A stretch of DNA of 64,000 nucleotides from IMG/VR virus record IMGVR_UViG_3300031473_000068; one strand, given 5' to 3'. Origin of the DNA: a virus. Numbering within the stretch: position 1 is the stretch's first letter; each line of letters opens with the position of its first letter. The position numbers and the translations under genes are program-made. Positions 1 to 63,516 of the stretch are shown in pieces. Under the pieces are notes generated by a model. It had not been told where the DNA came from, did no database searches, and saw only the letters and a list, made by a program, of their open reading frames with translations.

Positions 1-1891
1 TCCTCAGTTTGCATCAAATGAGCAGTATGGGCTTGGATTGGAAGGGCTCGGCTTTTATAAGGTTCTCAGCGATAATTTTGATGCCACGGTCAGAGGTAAC
101 ATATACAGCTACGGTGGATGGAATTTGAATCTTTCTTCAATGTACCTGAAGCGTTATAAGTACAATGGCCGCTTAAACCTGGCAATACAAAATACTAAGA
201 TACTTAACAGCGGAGGTTACGCAAAAGAAGAATTCACAAAAAGCAAAACTTTCATGATAAACTGGAGCCATAGCAGGGACAGTAAGGCGAGACCGGGGAC
301 GAGTTTTTCAGCTAATGTAAATGCAGGAAGTACCAAGTTCAACAGGTATGTTTCCAATAACTCATTACAAAACTTTCAAAACAGTTTAAGTTCTTCAATA
401 AATTACACCAAAGACTGGGGTGGAAAATATAATCTTTCGGTTAGTGCAAACCATAGTCAGAATGGTAATTTAGGTTTAGTTAACCTTAATCTCCCCACGG
501 CCAGTTTTAATGTTGTAACTGTTTATCCGTTTCAAAGAAAAGAAGCGGTTGGCACACCAAAATGGTATGAAAAATTGGGCGTGGGGTATACCGGAAATTT
601 TCAGAACCAGATTTCTTTCTATGATTCCGCCTTAAGCTTTCGAAGGCTTTTAGATACTGCACAATACGGAGCTACCCATGTTATCCCCATTACTTTATCA
701 TTACCTCAAATAGGCTCAATCCAGCTTTCACCAAGCATATCTTATGAAGAACGCTGGTATGGTCAGAAATTTTTTCAAACGTGGGATACCAGCAGGAAGA
801 GAGTAGATACCACTATTTCAAGAGGTTTATATGCTTCGCGGCAAATGCAGTTTGGTATGTCTGCCAGTACCAGGATTTTTGGTACGTATCAATTTGGCAA
901 AACACATAAAATACAGGCGATACGCCATGAGATCAGACCAAGCTTAAGTGTTAATTACAGACCGGATATGCAAAAGGGAACTTACCATAATGTTCGAGTG
1001 GATAGTTCAGACATTGACCCTGTTTTCCGTCGCTATTCGCAATATGAGGGTGGGATTATAGGACCTTTTGGTGAAGGAAGGTTTGGAGGTATTGGCTTTG
1101 GCCTGGATAATACACTTGAAATGAAAGTCAGAAACAATAAAGACACATCAGAGGGAGGCACTAAAAAAATAAGGCTGATAGATGGGTTTGGTTTCAATGG
1201 TTCATATAATCTTATTCCTCAACGTAACGATACCTTTCCTTTAAGTAATATAAGTTTGTATGCCAGAAGTACACTATTTGAAAAAATAAATATAACAGCT
1301 TCTGCCAGTCTCGATCCATATAAAGTAGACTCACGGGGGGTTCGACGGTCAAAACTAATGTTGAAGGATAATCTATTTAAACCGGGAAGGATAACCAATG
1401 CAGGTATTGCAGTATCTACTTCGTTTCAAAGCAAGAGTAAAGATGGTAAAACGGATAAAGAAAGATTACCGGAAGATGATTATATGACGCCTGACGAGCA
1501 ACAGCGACAATTGGATTATGTAAGGAGCAACCCTGCTGAATATACCGACTTCAATATTCCATGGAGCTTACAATTATCGTTTTCTTTAAGCTACTCAAAG
1601 CAGTATGGCAGTAATCGAACAATGTTGTCAAGGGTTTACTCTAATTTAAGTATTAACGGCGATTTCAGTTTAACTCCCCGCTGGAAACTTGGCGGAAATA
1701 CTTACTTCGATTTTACTACCCGTAAAATACAGACCTTAACTATGTTTATAACGCGTGAAATGCACTGCTGGCAAATGGCAATAAACATTACCCCTGTAGG
1801 TCTCTATAGGTCTTTCAACGTCACAATAAATCCCAAATCAGGAATTTTACGAGACTTGAAGGTCAACAGATCGCGTTTTTTTTATCAGTAA
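1..1891 (+). CDS. lptD: Putative LPS-assembly outer membrane beta-barrel protein (Bacteroidota LptD-like), 5' truncated by window
   Basis: Open frame continues to position 2. Aromatic-rich beta-strand pattern and conserved C-terminal RxxHCWQMxINxTPxGxYRSFNxTIxxKSGILRDLK motif of Bacteroidota LptD-like proteins. Confidence 0.7.
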   Translation, partial: PQFASNEQYGLGLEGLGFYKVLSDNFDATVRGNIYSYGGWNLNLSSMYLKRYKYNGRLNLAIQNTKILNSGGYAKEEFTKSKTFMINWSHSRDSKARPGTSFSANVNAGSTKFNRYVSNNSLQNFQNSLSSSINYTKDWGGKYNLSVSANHSQNGNLGLVNLNLPTASFNVVTVYPFQRKEAVGTPKWYEKLGVGYTGNFQNQISFYDSALSFRRLLDTAQYGATHVIPITLSLPQIGSIQLSPSISYEERWYGQKFFQTWDTSRKRVDTTISRGLYASRQMQFGMSASTRIFGTYQFGKTHKIQAIRHEIRPSLSVNYRPDMQKGTYHNVRVDSSDIDPVFRRYSQYEGGIIGPFGEGRFGGIGFGLDNTLEMKVRNNKDTSEGGTKKIRLIDGFGFNGSYNLIPQRNDTFPLSNISLYARSTLFEKINITASASLDPYKVDSRGVRRSKLMLKDNLFKPGRITNAGIAVSTSFQSKSKDGKTDKERLPEDDYMTPDEQQRQLDYVRSNPAEYTDFNIPWSLQLSFSLSYSKQYGSNRTMLSRVYSNLSINGDFSLTPRWKLGGNTYFDFTTRKIQTLTMFITREMHCWQMAINITPVGLYRSFNVTINPKSGILRDLKVNRSRFFYQ

Positions 1892-1895
1892 AAAC

Positions 1896-2008
1896 TATTT
1901 TTCCCGCAGATTTCACAAATGGCGCCGATAGAGCGCAGATTTTGTTATTTTTATACTTCAATAATTTTCTTTTCTGGGGGTAATCAGCGTAACCTGCGGG
2001 AGACTTAT
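1896..2008. repeat. REP-like palindromic repeat, copy 1
   Basis: TATTTTTCCCGCAGATTT...TTTTATACTT..AATA..TTTCTTTTCTGGGG.TAATCAGCGT.A.CTGCGGGA.ACTTAT, with terminal CCCGCAG/CTGCGGG inverted arms; near-identical to 2408-2515. Confidence 0.8.
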
Positions 2009-2009
2009 C

Positions 2010-2385
2010 ATGACAGAAAAATGACATTTCTTTTATCGTACGTGGAGCAATATTTAATGTTTATAATGCTTTAGGTCGGTCTATCAGAGTCTGTTTATGA
2101 ACTTGCTTTAAAATATGAATTAGAAAAGTCAGGCTTACTTGTTGACTCTCAGGAACCGCTTCCTGTTGTATATAACAATGTAAAACTTGAAGGTGGATAT
2201 AGAATTGATCTATTGGTTAACAATAGTGTGATAATAGAAATTAAATCAGTAGAAAATCTTTCTAAGGTACACTATAAACAATTAATTCTTATCTAAAATT
2301 ATCAGGGAAAAAATTGGGGTTGCTAATCAACTTTAATACAGAAAATATTTCCAAATCAATTTTTCGGAACGTAAATAATTTATAA
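2010..2385 (+). pseudogene. GxxExxY family protein, frameshifted
   Basis: Reconstructs to MTENDISFIVRGAIFNVYNALG[PGLL]ESVYELAL...GYRIDLLV...IIEIKSVE...LGLLINFN. Frameshifts near 2020, 2077 and 2290. Confidence 0.85.
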
Positions 2386-2407
2386 TACTGCGAGTTGTGG
2401 GAACACT

Positions 2408-2515
2408 TATTTTTCCCGCAGATTTCGCTAATATCGCAGATTGAGTGCGGATTTATATTTTTATACTTTAATAAATTTCTTTTCTGGGGTAATCAGCGTT
2501 ATCTGCGGGACTTAT
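2408..2515. repeat. REP-like palindromic repeat, copy 2 (overlaps acyltransferase stop)
   Basis: Imperfect direct repeat of 1896-2008 with CCCGCAGAT/ATCTGCGGG inverted ends. Confidence 0.8.
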
Positions 2516-3257
2516 AATAGTCCCACATAATTTTAAAAACCTTTTCTTTCAAATCTTTACTTGATATACCTTCTGAGCTGACTGGTTCAAGAAAGTGCAT
2601 TTCAAGAGTATGTGGCCACAGGTAAAAAGTTTTATTGAGAGGTAAAACTTTTCCACTGTTAAATACAAGTGTTGGTATAATGTCTTTATGAGTCTCTACT
2701 GCCAGTTTAAAGGCTCCATTGTGAAAAGACTTTAAAGGATCAGAAGTCCGGTTTCTTGTTCCTTCAGCGTAAATAACCATATGCAATCCCTGTGACAAAG
2801 TTCTTTTCATGTCTTCAAAGCTCTGCCGACGGCTTTCTTCACTATCCCGGTCAACCAGCACTGTGCCGCGAATATATACCCATCGGAATATGGGAGTTTT
2901 TGAAAAAGATTTTTTCCCGATTGTTTTATTTGCTCCCGGTACAAAAGGGGTTGTAATGGGCACATCCATCAAAGAATTATGATTGCACACTGCTACATAA
3001 TTCTTTCCTTTTTCAAAGTTTTCTTTGCCAATAACCTTTAAAGGAGAACCAATTAAAGTCAACCATACTCTCATCCATACTTTTGTTATCTGTCTGAAGG
3101 TTTCAGTGCCTGCAGGCTCTTTTATCAGGAATGTAATGCAAACCGGAATAATTATAATAAGCAACGTAGCAATGAAAGACACTAAACCCCACAAAGCCCA
3201 GAAAGCTCCAAAAATATTTTTAAGAATTTTCATATTGTAAATGTAGCAGTCATTCAA
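2499..3257 (-). CDS. plsC: 1-acyl-sn-glycerol-3-phosphate (lysophospholipid) acyltransferase
   Basis: NHNSLMD (HX4D) and YAEGTR motifs, N-terminal TM helix. Confidence 0.85.
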   Translation of the reverse strand: MNDCYIYNMKILKNIFGAFWALWGLVSFIATLLIIIIPVCITFLIKEPAGTETFRQITKVWMRVWLTLIGSPLKVIGKENFEKGKNYVAVCNHNSLMDVPITTPFVPGANKTIGKKSFSKTPIFRWVYIRGTVLVDRDSEESRRQSFEDMKRTLSQGLHMVIYAEGTRNRTSDPLKSFHNGAFKLAVETHKDIIPTLVFNSGKVLPLNKTFYLWPHTLEMHFLEPVSSEGISSKDLKEKVFKIMWDYYKSRR

Positions 3258-3928
3258 TCAAGATTCCAGTCAATCACATCCTGCTTTTGTTTCATAAGAT
3301 AATTATTTGTTTTGCTGAAATGTCTGCAGCCAAAAAAGCCTTTTTCGGCACTAAAAGGTGAGGGATGAGCCGCCTTCAAAACATGATGCCGTGTTTCATC
3401 AATTAAAACTTGTTTTTCCTGTGCAAAACGTCCCCAAAGTAAAAAAACAATCCCTTCCTTTTCTTCTGATACCTTGCTTATAACCGCATTGGTAAATTCC
3501 ATCCAACCAATTTTTGAATGACTTGCAGGTTCATTTGCTCTAACGGTTAAAACGGCATTCAATAACAATACTCTCTGTGTTGCCCATTTGGTAAGGTTAC
3601 CTGTTTTGGGAATAGGCATACCAATATCACTGTTTAGTTCTTTAAAGATATTTATGAGCGACGGGGGAGGAGTAACGCCATCAGGCACTGAGAAACTTAA
3701 ACCATGAGCCTGACCATAACCATGATAAGGATCCTGCCCAAGTAAAACAACGTTCACCTTATCAAAAGGTGTCTTATCAAAAGCATTAAAAATGAGCGAG
3801 CCGGATGGGTAAATAGTTTTGCCTTGTGATTTCTCTACCTTTAGAAAAGTAACAATTTGTTGAAAATACGGTTTACCAAATTCCGTCTTTAAAACATTTT
3901 TCCAGCCTTCTTCTAATTTCACATCCAT
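3254..3928 (-). CDS. ung: Uracil-DNA glycosylase family 1
   Basis: GQDPYH, PPSLxNI, LLLNAVLTV and HPSPFS motifs. Confidence 0.97.
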   Translation of the reverse strand: MDVKLEEGWKNVLKTEFGKPYFQQIVTFLKVEKSQGKTIYPSGSLIFNAFDKTPFDKVNVVLLGQDPYHGYGQAHGLSFSVPDGVTPPPSLINIFKELNSDIGMPIPKTGNLTKWATQRVLLLNAVLTVRANEPASHSKIGWMEFTNAVISKVSEEKEGIVFLLWGRFAQEKQVLIDETRHHVLKAAHPSPFSAEKGFFGCRHFSKTNNYLMKQKQDVIDWNLD

Positions 3929-3968
3929 TTTTACTTAATTTTCGTTTGGATGCAAACTAATTAAAATT

Positions 3969-3976
3969 TACTTTTG
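3969..3976 (+). promoter_or_regulatory. Bacteroidota -7 promoter element (TAnnTTTG) of tRNA-Arg
   Basis: TACTTTTG 14 nt upstream of the tRNA 5' end. Confidence 0.65.
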
Positions 3977-3990
3977 CCACCTCTAAAACA

Positions 3991-4064
3991 GGTCCGGTAG
4001 CTCAGCTGAATAGAGCAGCAGCCTTCTAAGCTGCGGGTCATTGGTTTGAATCCAATCCGGATCA
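3991..4064 (+). tRNA. tRNA-Arg(TCT); probable prophage attachment site (attL)
   Basis: Cloverleaf GGTCCGG..., anticodon arm GCAGC-CTTCTAA-GCTGC, T-arm ATTGG-TTTGAAT-CCAAT; integrase gene 135 bp downstream. Confidence 0.95.
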
Positions 4065-4068
4065 CTAT

Positions 4069-4149: not shown

Positions 4150-4157
4150 TACTTTTG
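4150..4157 (+). promoter_or_regulatory. Putative -7 element (TACTTTTG) for integrase
   Basis: Exact TAnnTTTG match about 40 nt upstream of int start. Confidence 0.45.
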
Positions 4158-4198: not shown

Positions 4199-5317
4199 AT
4201 GCAGTATTCAATCACCCCGGTGCTTCATCCCTATGCTGATAAGAGCGGTCTTCACAAGTTAAATCTGCAGGTAATATATAATAGAAAGAAGGCTTACGCA
4301 CCTGCAAGTATTAAACTTAAGGAAGAATTTTGGGACAATGGTGTTATTGTTAAGCATCCTAACAGAAAAGTATTTTCGGATCTTCTCAACAAACAAAGAA
4401 ATGAAATTGAAAAACGATTAATTGAAGCTATAAGAGAGAACGCTTCTATCTCAAAGCAACGACTGGGTGAAATAGCCAAGGGTCAGAAAGAGGGAAAACA
4501 AATACTAATCACGGATTTTATTTTTGACCAGGTTAAGCTGCTTAAAGGGAGGCTCACAGAGGGACGGCTTAAACATTACAAGGTAATGGCAGGTAAGATT
4601 GAATATTTCAAAGAGGGTGCGACCTTTCGGGAAATATCAATAACCTGGTTAGGCGAATTTGAGGCATGGTTAAGGTCCAAAGGGCTGCATAGCAATACCG
4701 TACTGAGTAATATGAGTTTGCTCGTAGGAATATTTAATAAAGCTGCCGTTGCCGGCTTAATCAAAAAGGAACAGTTTGCAGGATACAAGCGGCCGCGGTA
4801 TACGCAAAAAATAAGCGAGTACCTTACCGAGGAAGAAATAAATAAACTGTTTGACCTGGTGAAAATTATTGAAAAGCCGGGTCATAAGCTTGCAGGTTAT
4901 TATTATATACTCAGTTGCCTGACAGGTTACCGCCTTAGCGACGCTAAGTCTTTTGATTATAAAAAAAACGTGCAGGACGGAAATTTAATTCTCCAGGCAA
5001 AGAAAAACAAAGCCATTGTTTCTACCCCAATATTTTCGCGGCTTGCTGAAGTGCTCGAGTATATAAAAGACAAACCTTTACATCTCAGTGAGGATAAAAT
5101 ACGGCAGTATATAAAAGAACTGTTTTCTTTAGTGGGTATTAACAAAGATATCTCTTATCATTCTTCCAGGCATAGCTACGCAATGCTTCTTATTAAAAAA
5201 GGATTCAGTATTGACGAGGTTGCCCAGGCTATTGGTGATACAGCGATAGTAGCGAAAGTATATGCCAAAATCAGCAACCCGCATTTACATAAAAAATTCA
5301 AAGAACTTTTAGGGTAA
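4199..5317 (+). CDS. int: Tyrosine recombinase/phage integrase
   Basis: GYRLSD (catalytic R), HSSRH (HxxR), VYAK (catalytic Y); Bacteroidota-type arm and SAM-like N-terminal domains. Confidence 0.93.
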   Translation: MQYSITPVLHPYADKSGLHKLNLQVIYNRKKAYAPASIKLKEEFWDNGVIVKHPNRKVFSDLLNKQRNEIEKRLIEAIRENASISKQRLGEIAKGQKEGKQILITDFIFDQVKLLKGRLTEGRLKHYKVMAGKIEYFKEGATFREISITWLGEFEAWLRSKGLHSNTVLSNMSLLVGIFNKAAVAGLIKKEQFAGYKRPRYTQKISEYLTEEEINKLFDLVKIIEKPGHKLAGYYYILSCLTGYRLSDAKSFDYKKNVQDGNLILQAKKNKAIVSTPIFSRLAEVLEYIKDKPLHLSEDKIRQYIKELFSLVGINKDISYHSSRHSYAMLLIKKGFSIDEVAQAIGDTAIVAKVYAKISNPHLHKKFKELLG

Positions 5318-58617: not shown

Positions 58618-59553
58618 ATGAATATACTTGAAATACCAATATTACCAGTAGCTAATTCACTTATTCAAATTTTGATAGGTGTAGCCTTAGTTATAAATAT
58701 TGCAATAAGCTTAAGTTCAGTAAAAATCAAGAAGTTTATTCCGTTCCTAAGAAATCAATCAATTGAAATTATAGAAGAAAAGGTATGCAGTTTCGAAGAA
58801 TCAGCATATCCAAAAATAGTGACAGATGAGCGTGGTATAGTTTCAAGTGTTAACAAAGAGGCAGAGAAATTATTCGGATATAATGAAATAGAATGGCGTG
58901 GAAATAATCTTGATAGAATAATACCAGAAAGATTTAAGCAAGCTCATAACGAAGGAATAAAAAGAATGATAGGTAAGCCACTCGAGAGTAAAACCTTTAA
59001 TTTATTTGCTATTAATAACCATGGTAAAGAATTTCCTATTGAATTAATACTTAGAAAGAAATTTTATTATGGCCGGGCTTTTTATATTGCTGCGATGCGT
59101 GATATGATTAAGGAAGTTGAATTTAAAATACAATGTGAAAAAGAAATTGACTTAATAAAATTTAAACTTTCTATCGTTGACAAAGGAGAGGAAATTGGTA
59201 ACCACAGCAGTTGGGTATTAAATATAAAAACAGGAAAAGTAAAGGCAAGTGATGGATATAAAAAAATTACACATGCAGATTTTGAATTGGAGTTTGATCT
59301 TGGTGACATTATAAATAAAATTTGGGAAGAAGATGTAGAAATTATAAATAACGCTGTCTATGGAGCAACGGTTGAAGGTAAAAACTATGATATAAAGTAT
59401 AGAATGTACCGTGGTGATGACGTAAAGGTTTTATACTTGCACGGCAGGGGAATAGTAACAAAAGATGAGAATGGAATACCAATATTTTTGCAGGGTTCAA
59501 CATCTCTACTAAAAGTAATGACTATCAGGGAAGCGGAAAATAATCCAATATAA
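58618..59553 (+). CDS. Membrane-anchored PAS-PAS protein without output domain
   Basis: N-terminal TM; NKEAEKLFGY...IIPERFKQAH...GKEFPIEL (FixL-like PAS); second PAS/PAC YDIKYRM...GRG. Confidence 0.8.
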   Translation: MNILEIPILPVANSLIQILIGVALVINIAISLSSVKIKKFIPFLRNQSIEIIEEKVCSFEESAYPKIVTDERGIVSSVNKEAEKLFGYNEIEWRGNNLDRIIPERFKQAHNEGIKRMIGKPLESKTFNLFAINNHGKEFPIELILRKKFYYGRAFYIAAMRDMIKEVEFKIQCEKEIDLIKFKLSIVDKGEEIGNHSSWVLNIKTGKVKASDGYKKITHADFELEFDLGDIINKIWEEDVEIINNAVYGATVEGKNYDIKYRMYRGDDVKVLYLHGRGIVTKDENGIPIFLQGSTSLLKVMTIREAENNPI

Positions 59554-59554
59554 A

Positions 59555-59932
59555 ATGAGTGATAATCAATACCATGACGGTTCTTTTATGGCTTGGGCAT
59601 CAGCGGGATTTACTGCCATATTGGGAGCTATAGGATATTTGTATAAGGATTATACTGGCAAACAACAAAGAGATGTCACGTTAAAAGAGTCTACGGCTAA
59701 ATTAAGAGCAATTGAAAATGCAACTGCTGAGGCAACAATAACCAGACTAAATAAAGAAATAGAAAGGATCACTTCAGCGTATGAAAAATTGATTATAGTT
59801 AGTGATAAGCAGGTAACAGCAATTGAAGAAGTAACAAAAGATAAGGAATCTACTTTAAAAGAATTGAATGACATAAAAATTCAGATACAAAAATTAAATA
59901 ACGAACTGGCTTTCTATAAAATAAAAAAATAA
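59555..59932 (+). CDS. TM plus coiled-coil protein (holin or inner-spanin candidate)
   Basis: Single N-terminal TM then long heptad repeat; lysis region. Confidence 0.55.
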   Translation: MSDNQYHDGSFMAWASAGFTAILGAIGYLYKDYTGKQQRDVTLKESTAKLRAIENATAEATITRLNKEIERITSAYEKLIIVSDKQVTAIEEVTKDKESTLKELNDIKIQIQKLNNELAFYKIKK

Positions 59933-59937
59933 AAATT

Positions 59938-60351
59938 ATGGTACAAACATTCTGGTCAAAGTATAAGGTACTTATTTCAGGAGCAGTAACGGCCACTTTT
60001 ACTGCCTTAGCTCCAATGCTTTTAACCCCTTCGCACGAATGGAATAGTAAAGCTCTTATTGTTGCCGGATGCCTTGCCATGGGAGCTTTTTTATCGCAGG
60101 AAGCAAGGGGTAAAAACTGGACGATACTTGGTCAGGTCGCAGCCGGCGTTATCGCTTTCTCATCCGCTTATGAAGGTGATTTTGATGTGCCTCGTATGGT
60201 GATGGCCATTGCAATCGCTGCTTTTGCAATTCCATTACCTCCGGTAAAACTGTCCTCGTATGAACATTCCGAACCTATAGTGGAAGCAAAGCGGGAGGCA
60301 GAAGCTATGAACGAAGAAGGGAAAAAAATTAATTCTTTAAGAGAGTCATGA
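59938..60351 (+). CDS. Multi-TM holin-like protein
   Basis: About 4 hydrophobic segments and charged C-terminus, upstream of lysozyme. Confidence 0.55.
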   Translation: MVQTFWSKYKVLISGAVTATFTALAPMLLTPSHEWNSKALIVAGCLAMGAFLSQEARGKNWTILGQVAAGVIAFSSAYEGDFDVPRMVMAIAIAAFAIPLPPVKLSSYEHSEPIVEAKREAEAMNEEGKKINSLRES

Positions 60352-60428
60352 CAACTTTAGACAAAATTAAAATCACATTATTGCTTATAGTCCTTGCGGT
60401 TATAGGATATCTTTTTATTAACACTTAA
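60348..60428 (+). CDS. Tiny single-TM peptide (26 aa, not in ORF track)
   Basis: MTTLDKIKITLLLIVLAVIGYLFINT; ATGA-coupled. Confidence 0.45.
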   Translation: MTTLDKIKITLLLIVLAVIGYLFINT

Positions 60429-60440
60429 AAATCAAATATT

Positions 60441-60932
60441 ATGTTCTTAGACAAATTCTTATCAAAAATCGGTGACGTGTTTTCCAGTCTTTTTAATTCA
60501 GCAAAAAAAACATGGGTCAAACTTAGCCCTGAAGTTCAAAATGCGATGCTGCATGGCTCTGCGGTTTTTGCAGCGATAAATAAATTCAGAGATGCAGCAC
60601 CTGATTTTATTATTGATTTCCTTACAAAAAAATATCCTGATTTACCAGTAGAAAAACTGTTTGACGGTCTTACAAAAGTTTCATTAGCATTAAACATTGC
60701 TGAAGGTATTAATAGTCCAGACTTAGAAACAACAATAAAAAATCTTCAGGCTTATTTTGCCAGCAAAAAAGATGATGGTAAAATATGGGCAACGCTTTCA
60801 CATGCAGCAGCAAGTATTTTAGCTGTTATACTTGCGCCAGCAGGAACTAAAGTAGCTGTTGTGATTTCCTTAATCGAATATGTTTTCCAGGATAAAGTTA
60901 AAGGAGACATGGAAGAAAAGGAAGCTGCTTAG
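60441..60932 (+). CDS. Hypothetical protein with C-terminal hydrophobic helices
   Basis: 163-aa ORF in lysis region. Confidence 0.65.
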   Translation: MFLDKFLSKIGDVFSSLFNSAKKTWVKLSPEVQNAMLHGSAVFAAINKFRDAAPDFIIDFLTKKYPDLPVEKLFDGLTKVSLALNIAEGINSPDLETTIKNLQAYFASKKDDGKIWATLSHAAASILAVILAPAGTKVAVVISLIEYVFQDKVKGDMEEKEAA

Positions 60933-60963
60933 ATTTTACAACAGATCAGTTGTGGTAAGTAAT

Positions 60964-60996
60964 AAAAAAAAAGCCATCCTTCGGAAAGAATGGCTT
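60964..60996 (-). terminator. Rho-independent terminator for the antisense tRNA-like gene
   Basis: Minus strand AAGCCATTCTT-TCCG-AAGGATGGCTT followed by poly-T. Confidence 0.8.
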
Positions 60997-61024
60997 CAAT
61001 TTAAGCGCCGGGCTTGCTTCCCAG

Positions 61025-61095
61025 TTGCGGGAACGGGAATTGAACCCGTGACTAAGGCTTATGAGACCTTCGAGATACCGCTTCTCCATCCCGAA
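61025..61095 (-). tRNA. tRNA-Met(CAT)-like gene with acceptor-stem mismatch
   Basis: TTCGGGA TG GAGA AGCGGTA TCTC G AAGGT CTCATAA GCCTT AGTC ACGGG TTCAATT CCCGT TCCCGCA A; U2/C71 mismatch; no encoded CCA. Confidence 0.8.
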
Positions 61096-61098
61096 CAA

Positions 61099-61106
61099 CA
61101 AAGGTA
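61099..61106 (-). promoter_or_regulatory. Bacteroidota -7 element TACCTTTG for the tRNA-like gene
   Basis: Exact TAnnTTTG 3 nt upstream of tRNA 5' end; TTTG 23 nt further upstream. Confidence 0.65.
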
Positions 61107-61119
61107 AAATATTTTTTCT

Positions 61120-61599
61120 ATGGCAACATCAAAAATAATAGTACCCTGCGCCGAAATAAAAGCAATGTCAGAAAAAGGCATTTCTTTTCTTATTAATGAA
61201 GAAGGATTAAGATTAAAGCCTTATTTGGATAGTGTCCATATACCCACAATCGGCATTGGGAATACATTTTACGAGAATGGCATAAGGGTAACAATGAAAG
61301 ATAAGGCCATCACAAAAGAGAGGGCAAAATCATTATTTAGAACTGTATTACATGCTTATGAAAAAGCTGTATGGAGCAATACTGTAGATACTATTAATCA
61401 GAACCAGTTTGATGCTCTTACCTCATTATGTTATAATATAGGCATACAAAGTTTCAAAGGCTCTACTGTATTAAGAAGGGTAAACGTAAATCAGAACGAC
61501 GTGCTTATAATAAAAGCTTTTGAGATGTGGAAGTTTGCGGGAGATAAGCCCGTATTACTTGCGAGACGAAAAAGAGAGGCTGAATTATATTTCAGTTAA
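61120..61599 (+). CDS. Endolysin, GH24 phage lysozyme
   Basis: E-x8-D-x5-T triad (EEGLRLKPYLDSVHIPTIGIG), NQFDALxSxxYNIG, RRxxEAxLY. Confidence 0.93.
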   Translation: MATSKIIVPCAEIKAMSEKGISFLINEEGLRLKPYLDSVHIPTIGIGNTFYENGIRVTMKDKAITKERAKSLFRTVLHAYEKAVWSNTVDTINQNQFDALTSLCYNIGIQSFKGSTVLRRVNVNQNDVLIIKAFEMWKFAGDKPVLLARRKREAELYFS

Positions 61600-61605
61600 C
61601 CACAA

Positions 61606-62175
61606 ATGAATAAACTTCTGCTTTTAATTTTAATTTTAATTTTTACTTCCTGCACCAAAGCAGCAATAGAACCTTTGACTGAACCTGACACTAAAATTTC
61701 AGAATACAGAAGTCTAAGTACATTATATCCAATATATCAGCAAAGCACTCGTATAAGTCTATGGCTGCTTTTTGACAGTTCTAATTACATCGAGGCGAGA
61801 GCAGATTACGCTGAGCTTCATTTAAGCGATACACTTAGCAATTCAATTACAAGTGCTGATGAAATTAAAACATGGAGTGGATATGATCATCTGGCAATAT
61901 ATCACAATGATGCTTTTAAGTATCTGTCTAAAGAGTATCGGCAATACCTTCCAGATACGATACAGCTTAATACTTACCGGTTATTAAGGGAGCATTATTG
62001 GATTAGAGCCATTGCTAACAATGTACCTTCTGTTTTTAAAATTTACTTACTCGATACTTACACGGGAGAGAAAATACTGCTACCTGGAAATAATATAAGT
62101 ACATGGTATCTATTTAAAACACGGGCTATTAATTATAGATTCCGGTTAATAATAGAAAGAAATGTCATTTCTTGA
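61606..62175 (+). CDS. Lipoprotein (possible outer-spanin position; paralogue of 48008-48556)
   Basis: LILIFTS-C lipobox; shared DTIxL...KxYxxD...YRFxLI domain. Confidence 0.65.
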   Translation: MNKLLLLILILIFTSCTKAAIEPLTEPDTKISEYRSLSTLYPIYQQSTRISLWLLFDSSNYIEARADYAELHLSDTLSNSITSADEIKTWSGYDHLAIYHNDAFKYLSKEYRQYLPDTIQLNTYRLLREHYWIRAIANNVPSVFKIYLLDTYTGEKILLPGNNISTWYLFKTRAINYRFRLIIERNVIS

Positions 62176-62368
62176 ATGTTATAGGGGTATGCCTGATGAA
62201 GAACCGAAAGCCCGGGCAGAAAGATTATTGCAGAAGTTTGGAAGCAAAGAGTTAGTTGAATTTCATATAAATGAATTACGAAATCAAAGTTTTTTTATCC
62301 AGTTTAGCAAAAATTATTTTATATACTTAGACAAGGTGGAAAGTGAATTAAACCTATTAATAGACTAG
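62162..62368 (+). CDS. Hypothetical protein
   Basis: 68-aa ORF. Confidence 0.5.
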   Translation: MSFLECYRGMPDEEPKARAERLLQKFGSKELVEFHINELRNQSFFIQFSKNYFIYLDKVESELNLLID

Positions 62369-62384
62369 ACTAAACAAAATAAAA

Positions 62385-63272
62385 ATGAAAAAATTACTCC
62401 CTTTCCTACTGATTTTAATTTCATGCAGCAAGCAATTGCCATCAATATCATGGAGAAAAGCCATACTAACTTCGGCACTCGTACAAGCACCTACAAGACC
62501 TGACCATATTATTTATGTCTGGTTTGAAAATAAAGCTTATAGCAACATTGTAGGAAGTAGTAATGCACCCTATATTAATTCACTTATAGCTAAAGGCACT
62601 CTTTTCACTAATGCGCATGGTGTTACACACCCTTCGTACCCGAACTACATTGCTTGGTTCTCCGGCAGCACTCAGGGAATTACTAATGACAACTGCATAG
62701 ACGGCACACCAAAAATCGGAACAACTATTTATAATCAATTAGCAGCCAAAGGAGTTGATTTCCGTTGGTATTCAGAAGGACTTCCTTCTATTGGCAGTAC
62801 AATATGTTCATCCGGTTACTATCGAGAAAAGCACAATCCAACTACTATATTTTCACAAGTTCCAACTTCCAAAAACAGGCCGTTTTATCTTTTAGATGAT
62901 GCACTAAAAGACACTGTGAAAATGCTTGCTATGCCTCCTGTTATATGTGTGACACCTAACATGATTGATGACATGCATGATGGCACAATTCAGCAAGGTG
63001 ACGCATGGTTAAAGTTGCACTTCAAACCGTACATTGATTGGGCTATGACTCACAACAGTATGTTAGTAGTTCTTTTTGACGAAGATAATAAGTTGGAAGG
63101 TAATAAAATACCAGTTGTAATGATTGGACAACATGTGAAGCAGAACTTTCAACTTGTTGGAACTTATAATCTTTACTCATTTACTAAGTTGACCTGTTCA
63201 CTTTTTGGTGCAAGCACTACATGGGCAACGAATGTTAATAATGCAACAATACCAACGGGATGGGAAAACTAA
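62385..63272 (+). CDS. Phosphoesterase/acid phosphatase (SapM-like, alkaline phosphatase superfamily) lipoprotein
   Basis: LLILIS-C lipobox; DHIxxVWFENK, HPSxPNY, KHNP, DMHDG, FDE motifs. Confidence 0.88.
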   Translation: MKKLLPFLLILISCSKQLPSISWRKAILTSALVQAPTRPDHIIYVWFENKAYSNIVGSSNAPYINSLIAKGTLFTNAHGVTHPSYPNYIAWFSGSTQGITNDNCIDGTPKIGTTIYNQLAAKGVDFRWYSEGLPSIGSTICSSGYYREKHNPTTIFSQVPTSKNRPFYLLDDALKDTVKMLAMPPVICVTPNMIDDMHDGTIQQGDAWLKLHFKPYIDWAMTHNSMLVVLFDEDNKLEGNKIPVVMIGQHVKQNFQLVGTYNLYSFTKLTCSLFGASTTWATNVNNATIPTGWEN

Positions 63273-63285
63273 TGCAGTTACTATT

Positions 63286-63516
63286 ATGAAAAAGTATTCA
63301 GAAATTTTTTTTGTTTCAAAAGCAAGTGAGTTTTTAGAAAAAATGCCTATAGGGATCTATCCCTTAAACACAGTAGGAATGACTGGTTATAAGTGTGGAT
63401 GCGGTTCATATCAAGACGGTGATGCACCTTGTAAAAATCATCCAACATGGGCAATAAATTACGGCAATAATGTTGGTGTTGTCTATGCTTGCGATAAACA
63501 TGCGGGAGAATTTTAA
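63286..63516 (+). CDS. Small Cys/His-rich hypothetical protein
   Basis: CGCG...CKNH...CDKH. Confidence 0.55.
   Translation: MKKYSEIFFVSKASEFLEKMPIGIYPLNTVGMTGYKCGCGSYQDGDAPCKNHPTWAINYGNNVGVVYACDKHAGEF

Follow-up and report, generated by a model that had tools for sequence, protein, structure and literature searches.

A phage-borne initiator-type tRNA(CAU) gene, with a putative promoter and a terminator of its own, at the endolysin entrance of a Bacteroidota prophage

The gene described here lies on the minus strand of a 64,000-nucleotide (nt) stretch of viral DNA, IMG/VR virus record IMGVR_UViG_3300031473_000068 (the window, by which we mean the whole stretch), and encodes a transfer RNA with a CAU anticodon, referred to below as tRNA(CAT). 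It occupies positions 61025–61095, with nucleotide 1 of the tRNA at 61095 and the discriminator A73 at 61025; A73 is followed by CUG, so that CCA is not encoded. ARAGORN calls a tRNA-Met(cat) at 61024–61095 on this strand, and Rfam model RF00005 matches 61025–61095 over its full length (1–71) with 55.5 bits and an E-value of 3e-9, the gathering score being 29, which bears out the antisense tRNA-Met(CAT)-like cloverleaf proposed in a preliminary description of the sequence. The minimum-energy fold is likewise a cloverleaf. Writing x for a mismatch and a point for a U.G or G.U pair, the acceptor stem consists of U1-A72, U2xC71, C3-G70, G4-C69, G5-C68, G6-C67 and A7-U66, the D stem of G10-C25, A11-U24, G12-C23 and A13-U22 (GAGA/UCUC), and the anticodon stem of A27-U43, A28-U42, G29-C41, G30-C40 and U31.G39; the anticodon loop is CUCAUAA, the variable loop is the 4-nt AGUC, and the T loop is UUCAAUU. 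The 2:71 position is the sole noncanonical pair in the Rfam alignment, the other 20 stem pairs are intact, and so are the core nucleotides U8, A14, G18-G19, U33, G53, U54-U55-C56, A58 and C61. The pairs listed in the preliminary description (U1-A72, the U2/C71 mismatch, A11-U24, and two G-C pairs plus U31-G39) and the missing CCA can each be read in the sequence.

The tRNA stands in a compact unit with signals of its own. Three nucleotides before nucleotide 1, at 61099–61106 on the minus strand, is an exact copy of TAnnTTTG, TACCTTTG, a putative Bacteroidota sigma-A "-7" box, and a second exact copy with the same putative function, TATTTTTG, lies further upstream on that strand at 61130–61137, within the first codons of the oppositely oriented endolysin gene. 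Downstream of the tRNA, a 26-nt 3' trailer (60998–61023, read from the sequence) leads to an intrinsic terminator at 60961–60997, found by a terminator scan and consisting of a 12-base-pair (bp) hairpin at 60997–60970 with a 4-nt loop, followed by nine U residues. The exact promoter element upstream and the strong terminator downstream that had been noted before are thus both in place. The hairpin contains G+C and its U tract is on the transcribed minus strand; the 64-nt minus-strand stretch 60960–61023, in which the 12-bp hairpin dominates, folds with -18.3 kcal/mol. On the plus strand the hairpin alone gives -9.5 kcal/mol and is followed by CAAU; it is weak there and lacks a U tract, and by these folding energies the hairpin is a predicted terminator on the minus strand only. 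Spacer, terminator, trailer, tRNA and promoter box exactly fill the 187-nt gap between the upstream gene, for a 163-residue protein, and the endolysin gene.

In Flavobacterium, the TAnnTTTG box is found at -12 to -5 (PMC9723704). With this spacing, the proximal box gives a predicted start at 61094 (tRNA nucleotide 2), plus or minus 2 nt, and a nearly leaderless transcript, and the distal box a predicted leader of about 30 nt, which RNase P would cut off. As TAnnTTTG occurs 71 times on the two strands of the window, about once per 1.8 kilobases (kb) of strand, two boxes within the 43 nt upstream of the tRNA are unlikely to be there by chance. Boxes of the form TACTTTTG are also found at 3969–3976, 14 nt upstream of a host tRNA-Arg(TCT) gene, and at 4150–4157, 41 nt upstream of the integrase start codon.

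The affinities of tRNA(CAT) are with initiators. In a BLAST search of 301 Bacteroidia genomes, its full-length matches were solely initiator-type tRNAs (74–78% identity), which carry A11-U24, three G-C pairs, G2-C71, C3-G70 and A73, and elongator tRNA-Met matched in the 3' half only. (Tallies over Bacteroidia genomes, from BLAST, from LptD and from the subtype census below, include two unpublished genomes, G095 and G181; no claim uses a sequence or locus of theirs.) Identity is highest, 84.7%, to a tRNA in a phage array, L155, and is 68–82% to other members of the subtype defined below, 59–78% to cellular initiators, 53–73% to elongator tRNA-Met, and 48% to the Ile2 type (L138, L140). Covariance models rank the classes alike: a model of the subtype built without tRNA(CAT) gives it 86.4 bits, one of cellular initiators 69.2 bits, and one of elongator tRNA-Met 37.5 bits, the last having a poor consensus structure and a score that is mostly sequence-based. 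The subtype model scores its own members at 91–99 and cellular initiators at 78–86, which places tRNA(CAT) at or above the cellular initiators.

Compared with the initiator tRNA-fMet of cells (Escherichia coli metY/metZWV and six Bacteroidia loci, L066–L070 and L072; 74–78% identity), tRNA(CAT) has in common the CUCAUAA loop, A11-U24, G29-C41, G30-C40, C3-G70, the acceptor 3' strand UCCCGCA and A73. Of the known initiator hallmarks, it therefore carries the CAU anticodon, A73 and a purine11-pyrimidine24 pair. It differs in having U31.G39 and not G31-C39, so that the three consecutive G-C pairs at 29:41, 30:40 and 31:39 have become G-C, G-C and U.G; in having A13-U22 and not C13-G22; in its 4-nt variable loop without G46; in a paired U1-A72; and in U2xC71 in place of G2-C71, which leaves C3-G70 as the one present of the two formyltransferase determinants, G2-C71 and C3-G70. 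In E. coli, growth is still sustained by initiators whose third G-C pair has been replaced by AU, GU or CG, G30 being crucial (PMC5389676), and by analogy to these mutants the GC/GC/U.G stem appears compatible with initiation. Among the cellular initiators we also saw one, L144, with two G-C pairs only (U29-A41, then G-C and G-C).

Most of what is unusual in this gene recurs elsewhere. Two of the genomic BLAST matches share the GAGA/UCUC D stem, and one of them, in a phage-like array of nine tRNA genes, has U31.G39 as well; these matches prompted a pattern scan. We define the subtype by A13-U22, by G29-C41/G30-C40/U31.G39 and by a variable loop lacking G46, with the acceptor and D arm initiator-like, and tRNA(CAT) has all of these. 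The combined D-arm and anticodon-arm pattern was found in 34 IMG/VR contigs and a narrower form of it in 11 metagenome contigs, and the subtype arm in one of 401 Bacteroidia genomes, within the same nine-tRNA array; the exact-core pattern of tRNA(CAT) was found in none of the viral or metagenome contigs. In the samples searched, the subtype is apparently confined to phages. As phage tRNA genes are common and canonical initiator-type anticodon arms occur in more than 112 IMG/VR contigs, an initiator tRNA on a phage is in itself no surprise.

Most members of the subtype belong to tRNA arrays of large phages that hold a separate elongator-like tRNA-Met, an Ile2-like CAT tRNA, or both, and the subtype would thus fill the initiator slot in these arrays. 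The members have an initiator-like acceptor (C1xA72 or U1-A72, G2-C71, C3-G70, A73) together with A11-U24, and depart from cellular initiators in three ways: C13-G22 has become A13-U22, G31-C39 has become U31.G39, and the variable loop, often the 4-nt AGUC, lacks G46. The change at 13:22 and the loss of G46 may well be coupled, as expected for a 13-22-46 base triple. The "hybrid identity" ascribed to the gene in the preliminary description was a fair summary and its anatomy was right; what it treated as a peculiarity of one gene is, as far as comparison of the sequences can tell, mostly a set of family traits of a recurrent phage-borne lineage of initiator type. As phage cargo the gene is of an ordinary kind; its variant type is under-described, and a single defect-like substitution is private to it. 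Three copies from phage arrays (L099:4431–4501, L153:970–1041 and L155:931–1002) have all three subtype traits in common with tRNA(CAT) at 79–85% identity. In contrast to the array copies, tRNA(CAT) is solitary and antisense to its neighbours, has its own Bacteroidota-type boxes and terminator, the U2xC71 mismatch and a host-type Bacteroidia T arm, and does not encode CCA, as many of the array copies do. The subtype breaks the rule of three G-C pairs, or three purine:pyrimidine pairs, at the third pair, and provides a natural test case both for what initiation needs of the anticodon stem and for the idea that tRNA-targeting defences shape phage tRNAs.

Other phage CAT tRNAs were noticed as well. 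A conserved phage array in L098 and L146–L154 (IMG/VR and metagenome contigs) runs Arg-tct, Met-cat, Tyr, Asn, Trp, Phe/Leu; ARAGORN reads some of its genes with 2- or 4-base anticodons ("His|Pro (atgg)", "Pro|Ser (gg)"), and the acceptor of its CAT tRNA is poorly paired as called. A third kind of phage CAT tRNA (L131:3994–4070, L012:2073–2146 and L013:3521–3594) has an initiator-like acceptor with A1xA72, an irregular D arm, and CGAGC/GCUCG as its anticodon stem. In both L012 and L013 an endolysin gene follows about 400 nt downstream on the same strand, and in L131 this third kind coexists with a phage-type initiator-like tRNA and an Ile2-like one.

Taken as a whole, we consider that this is a genuine and probably functional phage initiator-type tRNA(CAU), carried as a compact independent unit and most likely providing an extra initiator for the infected or lysogenic cell, and for this entire statement we would put the probability at roughly 60%. 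Under this reading, host RNA polymerase would transcribe the gene from one or both of the sigma-A "-7" boxes, the 3' trailer would be trimmed and CCA added by the host enzyme, methionyl-tRNA synthetase would charge the product through its CAU anticodon and A73, and the tRNA, once formylated and used in initiation, would supplement the initiator pool of the cell. Lack of an encoded CCA is normal for this host, as its own tRNA-Arg gene is likewise without one. Several observations weigh against the reading. Initiators are expected to lack a Watson–Crick pair at 1:72, and tRNA(CAT) has U1-A72; this objection is tempered by the cellular Bacteroidia initiators sampled (L066–L070, L072 and L144), in which 1:72 is not fixed (CxA, U-A, UxU, AxA and A-U) and of which that of a Sphingobacterium metagenome-assembled genome (MAG), L066, likewise has U1-A72. 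G2 is present in 22 of the 23 aligned initiator-type relatives, U2 in tRNA(CAT) alone. The pattern used for retrieval fixes three of the subtype traits, whose presence in the matches is by construction, and the independent evidence for the subtype is in its acceptor features and A11-U24, in the arrays around it and in its near-absence from cellular genomes. In array L131, a subtype member stands alongside another initiator-like CAT tRNA and its role there is less certain. A start at about tRNA nucleotide 2, as the proximal box predicts, is awkward unless the actual start is nucleotide 1 or the distal box is used. Finally, no tRNA of a relative is preceded by TAnnTTTG at a similar spacing, and the arrangement of promoter and terminator is kept by no relative.

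The most serious alternative is that the gene is decaying or already inactive, a newly acquired phage tRNA of initiator type that has lost G2-C71 and is heading towards a pseudogene, its promoter- and terminator-like signals being leftovers. We hold this to be unlikely, and grant it the weight it has mainly because of the U2xC71 mismatch. Since G2 is otherwise nearly universal among the relatives, U2xC71 is, as the alignment has it, a single derived substitution; it is no slip of assembly, as the contigs from two DNA runs of the rock metagenome that is the possible source of the window are identical over 60800–61300. The 2:71 pair belongs to the formyltransferase determinant (PMC5389676), the examinable junction ends of the relatives retrieved carry no tRNA, making the gene dispensable for this phage group, and an acceptor mismatch, C5xU68, is present in the closest relative, L155, too. 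Against decay, all remaining stem pairs and conserved tertiary nucleotides are intact, as are the hairpin with its nine U residues and the two boxes; working phage tRNAs commonly have single mismatches and a lower stability (PMC12482277), and a lone substitution does not suffice to demonstrate relaxed selection. Moreover, relative to L155, the pairs 7:66 and 49:65 have changed on both sides, and such compensatory changes argue that the structure of tRNA(CAT) has been maintained.

The closest matches of tRNA(CAT) also differ along its length. Over nucleotides 10–46 (37 nt) tRNA(CAT) is identical to the phage-type L155:931–1002, and over nucleotides 44–69 (26 nt) it is identical to L071, an elongator tRNA-Met of Bacteroidia; 20 nt including the variable loop are also identical to the tRNA-Thr(GGU) of many Bacteroidia. 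The gene would then be a mosaic, or convergent on a host-type T arm, and the identity of its 3' third to host-type tRNAs points to recombination between it and host tRNA genes, or to its adaptation to these. Two curiosities were seen among the host-type genes. As parsed, the elongator tRNA-Met of 17 of 18 Bacteroidia genomes (L071, L074 and 16 further loci) has G1.U72, an A31xC39 mismatch at the bottom of the anticodon stem and a UUCAUAA loop. In L270 (G217:C1:994400-995900), eight tandem tRNA-like genes of about 76 nt at a spacing of about 130 nt follow tRNA-Gly(TCC) and tRNA-Thr(GGT) at 320–1311; ARAGORN reports them as "tRNA-???" with an abnormal anticodon loop, and their variable loop and T arm are as in tRNA-Thr(GGT).

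A special case of the extra-initiator reading is that the tRNA is a nuclease-evasive spare: U31.G39 and the changes of the core would protect it from those tRNases of the host or of competitors that attack the cellular initiator, VapC-type PIN toxins for example, and initiation would continue during infection. VapC toxins of Salmonella, Shigella and Leptospira cut initiator tRNA in the anticodon loop (PMC5175351); phage tRNAs are often altered at nuclease target sites and evade anticodon nucleases (PMC10264068); and the subtype, phage-restricted in our samples, differs from cellular initiators at 31:39, right beside the loop. On the other side, no tRNase was identified in the host or the window, the anticodon loop CUCAUAA is unchanged, and phages that face VapC are generally without tRNA-fMet (PMC10264068). 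Winther and Gerdes 2011 reportedly placed the cleavage site beside position 39. A backup against anticodon nucleases had been among the functions proposed in the preliminary description, and it may be the most interesting of those that remain, even if we regard it as rather improbable. The stronger version, in which the whole subtype, with its third anticodon-stem pair turned to U.G and its 13:22:46 core rebuilt, is a defence-evasive initiator uncuttable by host or rival tRNases and the prophage expresses its copy from a nearly leaderless, RNase-P-independent promoter, strikes us as somewhat more doubtful still; if true, lysogens or infected cells would keep initiating when the cellular initiator tRNA comes under attack.

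Another proposal concerns the neighbours more than the tRNA. As an antisense RNA or a transcriptional roadblock, the unit could damp the endolysin in the lysogen, the tRNA shape being incidental or serving to stabilize the RNA. The unit is convergent with the late and lysis genes, and its "-7" boxes overlap the start region of the endolysin gene (61099–61137, with the ATG at 61120), where polymerase binding and convergent transcription could hinder read-through. Such read-through probably matters for the endolysin: as there is no plus-strand TAnnTTTG box between 59490 and the endolysin gene, its expression would depend on late rightward transcription across the tRNA unit. We nevertheless find an antisense or blocking role very unlikely. 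The tRNA transcript would be complementary to 60961–61095 only and would stop 25 nt before the endolysin ATG; in its folded state, a tRNA makes a poor antisense partner; the hairpin, weak and followed by CAAU on the plus strand, is not terminator-like there; the same type of tRNA is found in same-strand arrays and unrelated contexts of other phages; and relatives with endolysins of 69–75% identity have no tRNA upstream. The idea that tRNA(CAT) is instead an ordinary decoding tRNA, either elongator tRNA-Met or a tRNA-Ile2 with C34 turned into lysidine (the Ile(CAU) of the preliminary description), can be set aside as highly improbable: all three classes share the CAU anticodon, 26 nt of the T arm and acceptor 3' strand are those of elongator L071, and U1-A72 closes the stem, but A11-U24 replaces the C11-G24 of the elongator and Ile2 types of Bacteroidia, the elongator model falls far below the initiator-type models (37.5 bits against 69.2 and 86.4), all three Ile2 hallmarks (the GGAC.C acceptor, C11-G24 and the GACUCAUAAUC anticodon arm) differ at an identity of 48%, and phage arrays hold the subtype in addition to separate elongator-like and Ile2-like CAT tRNAs.

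The gene seems to have come to its place recently. No antisense tRNA lies upstream of the endolysin at 58 IMG/VR loci with endolysins of 40–55% identity, no tRNA was found upstream in seven contigs with endolysins of 69–75% identity (one of which covers just 50 nt upstream), and none was found downstream of the homologue in five contigs with homologues of the 163-residue protein at 43–60% identity. Only a few relatives have both flanking genes; the others show one end of the junction. In the closest relative by endolysin (75% identity; L275:93–280), a gap of the same size contains a small hydrophobic open reading frame and a perfect hairpin, and in three other contigs with both flanking genes the gap is 40 nt. 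A search of genome contigs with the endolysin gave one distant match, of 47%, in a Sphingobacterium MAG, and nucleotide BLAST of 59500–63500 against 50,697 phage records gave no match. Since no tRNA unit was seen beside the homologous genes of the relatives retrieved, the promoter–tRNA–terminator unit looks like a lineage-specific, recent, moron-like insertion, and it would make a clean example of a tRNA "moron", self-contained, reverse-oriented and placed at the endolysin entrance.

Temperate phages with a tRNA where the late or lysis region begins are found among the lambdoid and Stx phages as well, whose ileZ-argN-argO genes lie between Q and stx/lysis and encode rare-codon elongator tRNAs on the same strand as the late operon, with which they are cotranscribed; tRNA(CAT), in contrast, is of initiator type, on the opposite strand and with its own signals. 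Another temperate-phage tRNA that could matter in the lysogen is known from mycobacteriophages, in which a phage tRNA replaces the host tRNA gene destroyed by integration (PMC10865867); here the tRNA-Arg(UCU) site is intact and the phage tRNA has a different anticodon.

As to the setting, positions 1–3990 of the window hold host genes (LptD, an acyltransferase and UDG), followed by the tRNA-Arg(TCT) gene at 3991–4065 and a tyrosine integrase gene at 4199–5317, past which lie the terminase, portal, capsid and tail genes of a prophage. The window is a contig from a metagenome and is identical to a 73.5-kb ENA assembly contig across their overlap. The element is a Bacteroidota (Chitinophagaceae-like) prophage of about 58 kb or larger, integrated at tRNA-Arg(UCU). 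The target gene is intact at 63.2 bits, and we rejected tRNA-dependent lysogeny for that reason. No second copy of the tRNA-Arg 3' end, as expected at an attR, was found in the rest of the window or in the 3.6 kb beyond (L060); with no such copy and no integrase beside it, tRNA(CAT) was also rejected as an attachment-site remnant of this integration. From about 59.5 kb runs a lysis-like block encoding a 125-residue coiled-coil protein, a 137-residue protein with at least two hydrophobic segments, the 163-residue protein, a GH24 endolysin and a lipoprotein. The 163-residue protein (60441–60932, plus strand) is the last before the tRNA unit and has homologues of 43–60% identity. Its gene is the "holin-region gene" of the preliminary description; the protein has a C-terminal hydrophobic segment, and domain-family and phrog searches gave it no family match. 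The endolysin, a phage lysozyme of family GH24 (61120–61599, plus strand; PF00959, 1e-30; phrog_7 endolysin, 2e-39), has its start codon 24 nt from nucleotide 1 of the tRNA.

The host is a Bacteroidota of the Chitinophagaceae neighbourhood, a soil or rock bacterium. Its closest LptD among the 401 sampled Bacteroidia genomes is 62% identical, and some endolysin homologues carry the label Niabella. Of the five genomes closest by LptD, only G190 yielded an initiator tRNA of the host lineage itself, and this one is divergent. The closest of all by LptD, G036, contains at L141:818–1777 ten divergent tRNA genes (Asp, Gln, His, Arg, Ile-tat, Leu, Met-cat, Ile-gat, Lys and Asn) that resemble a prophage tRNA array.

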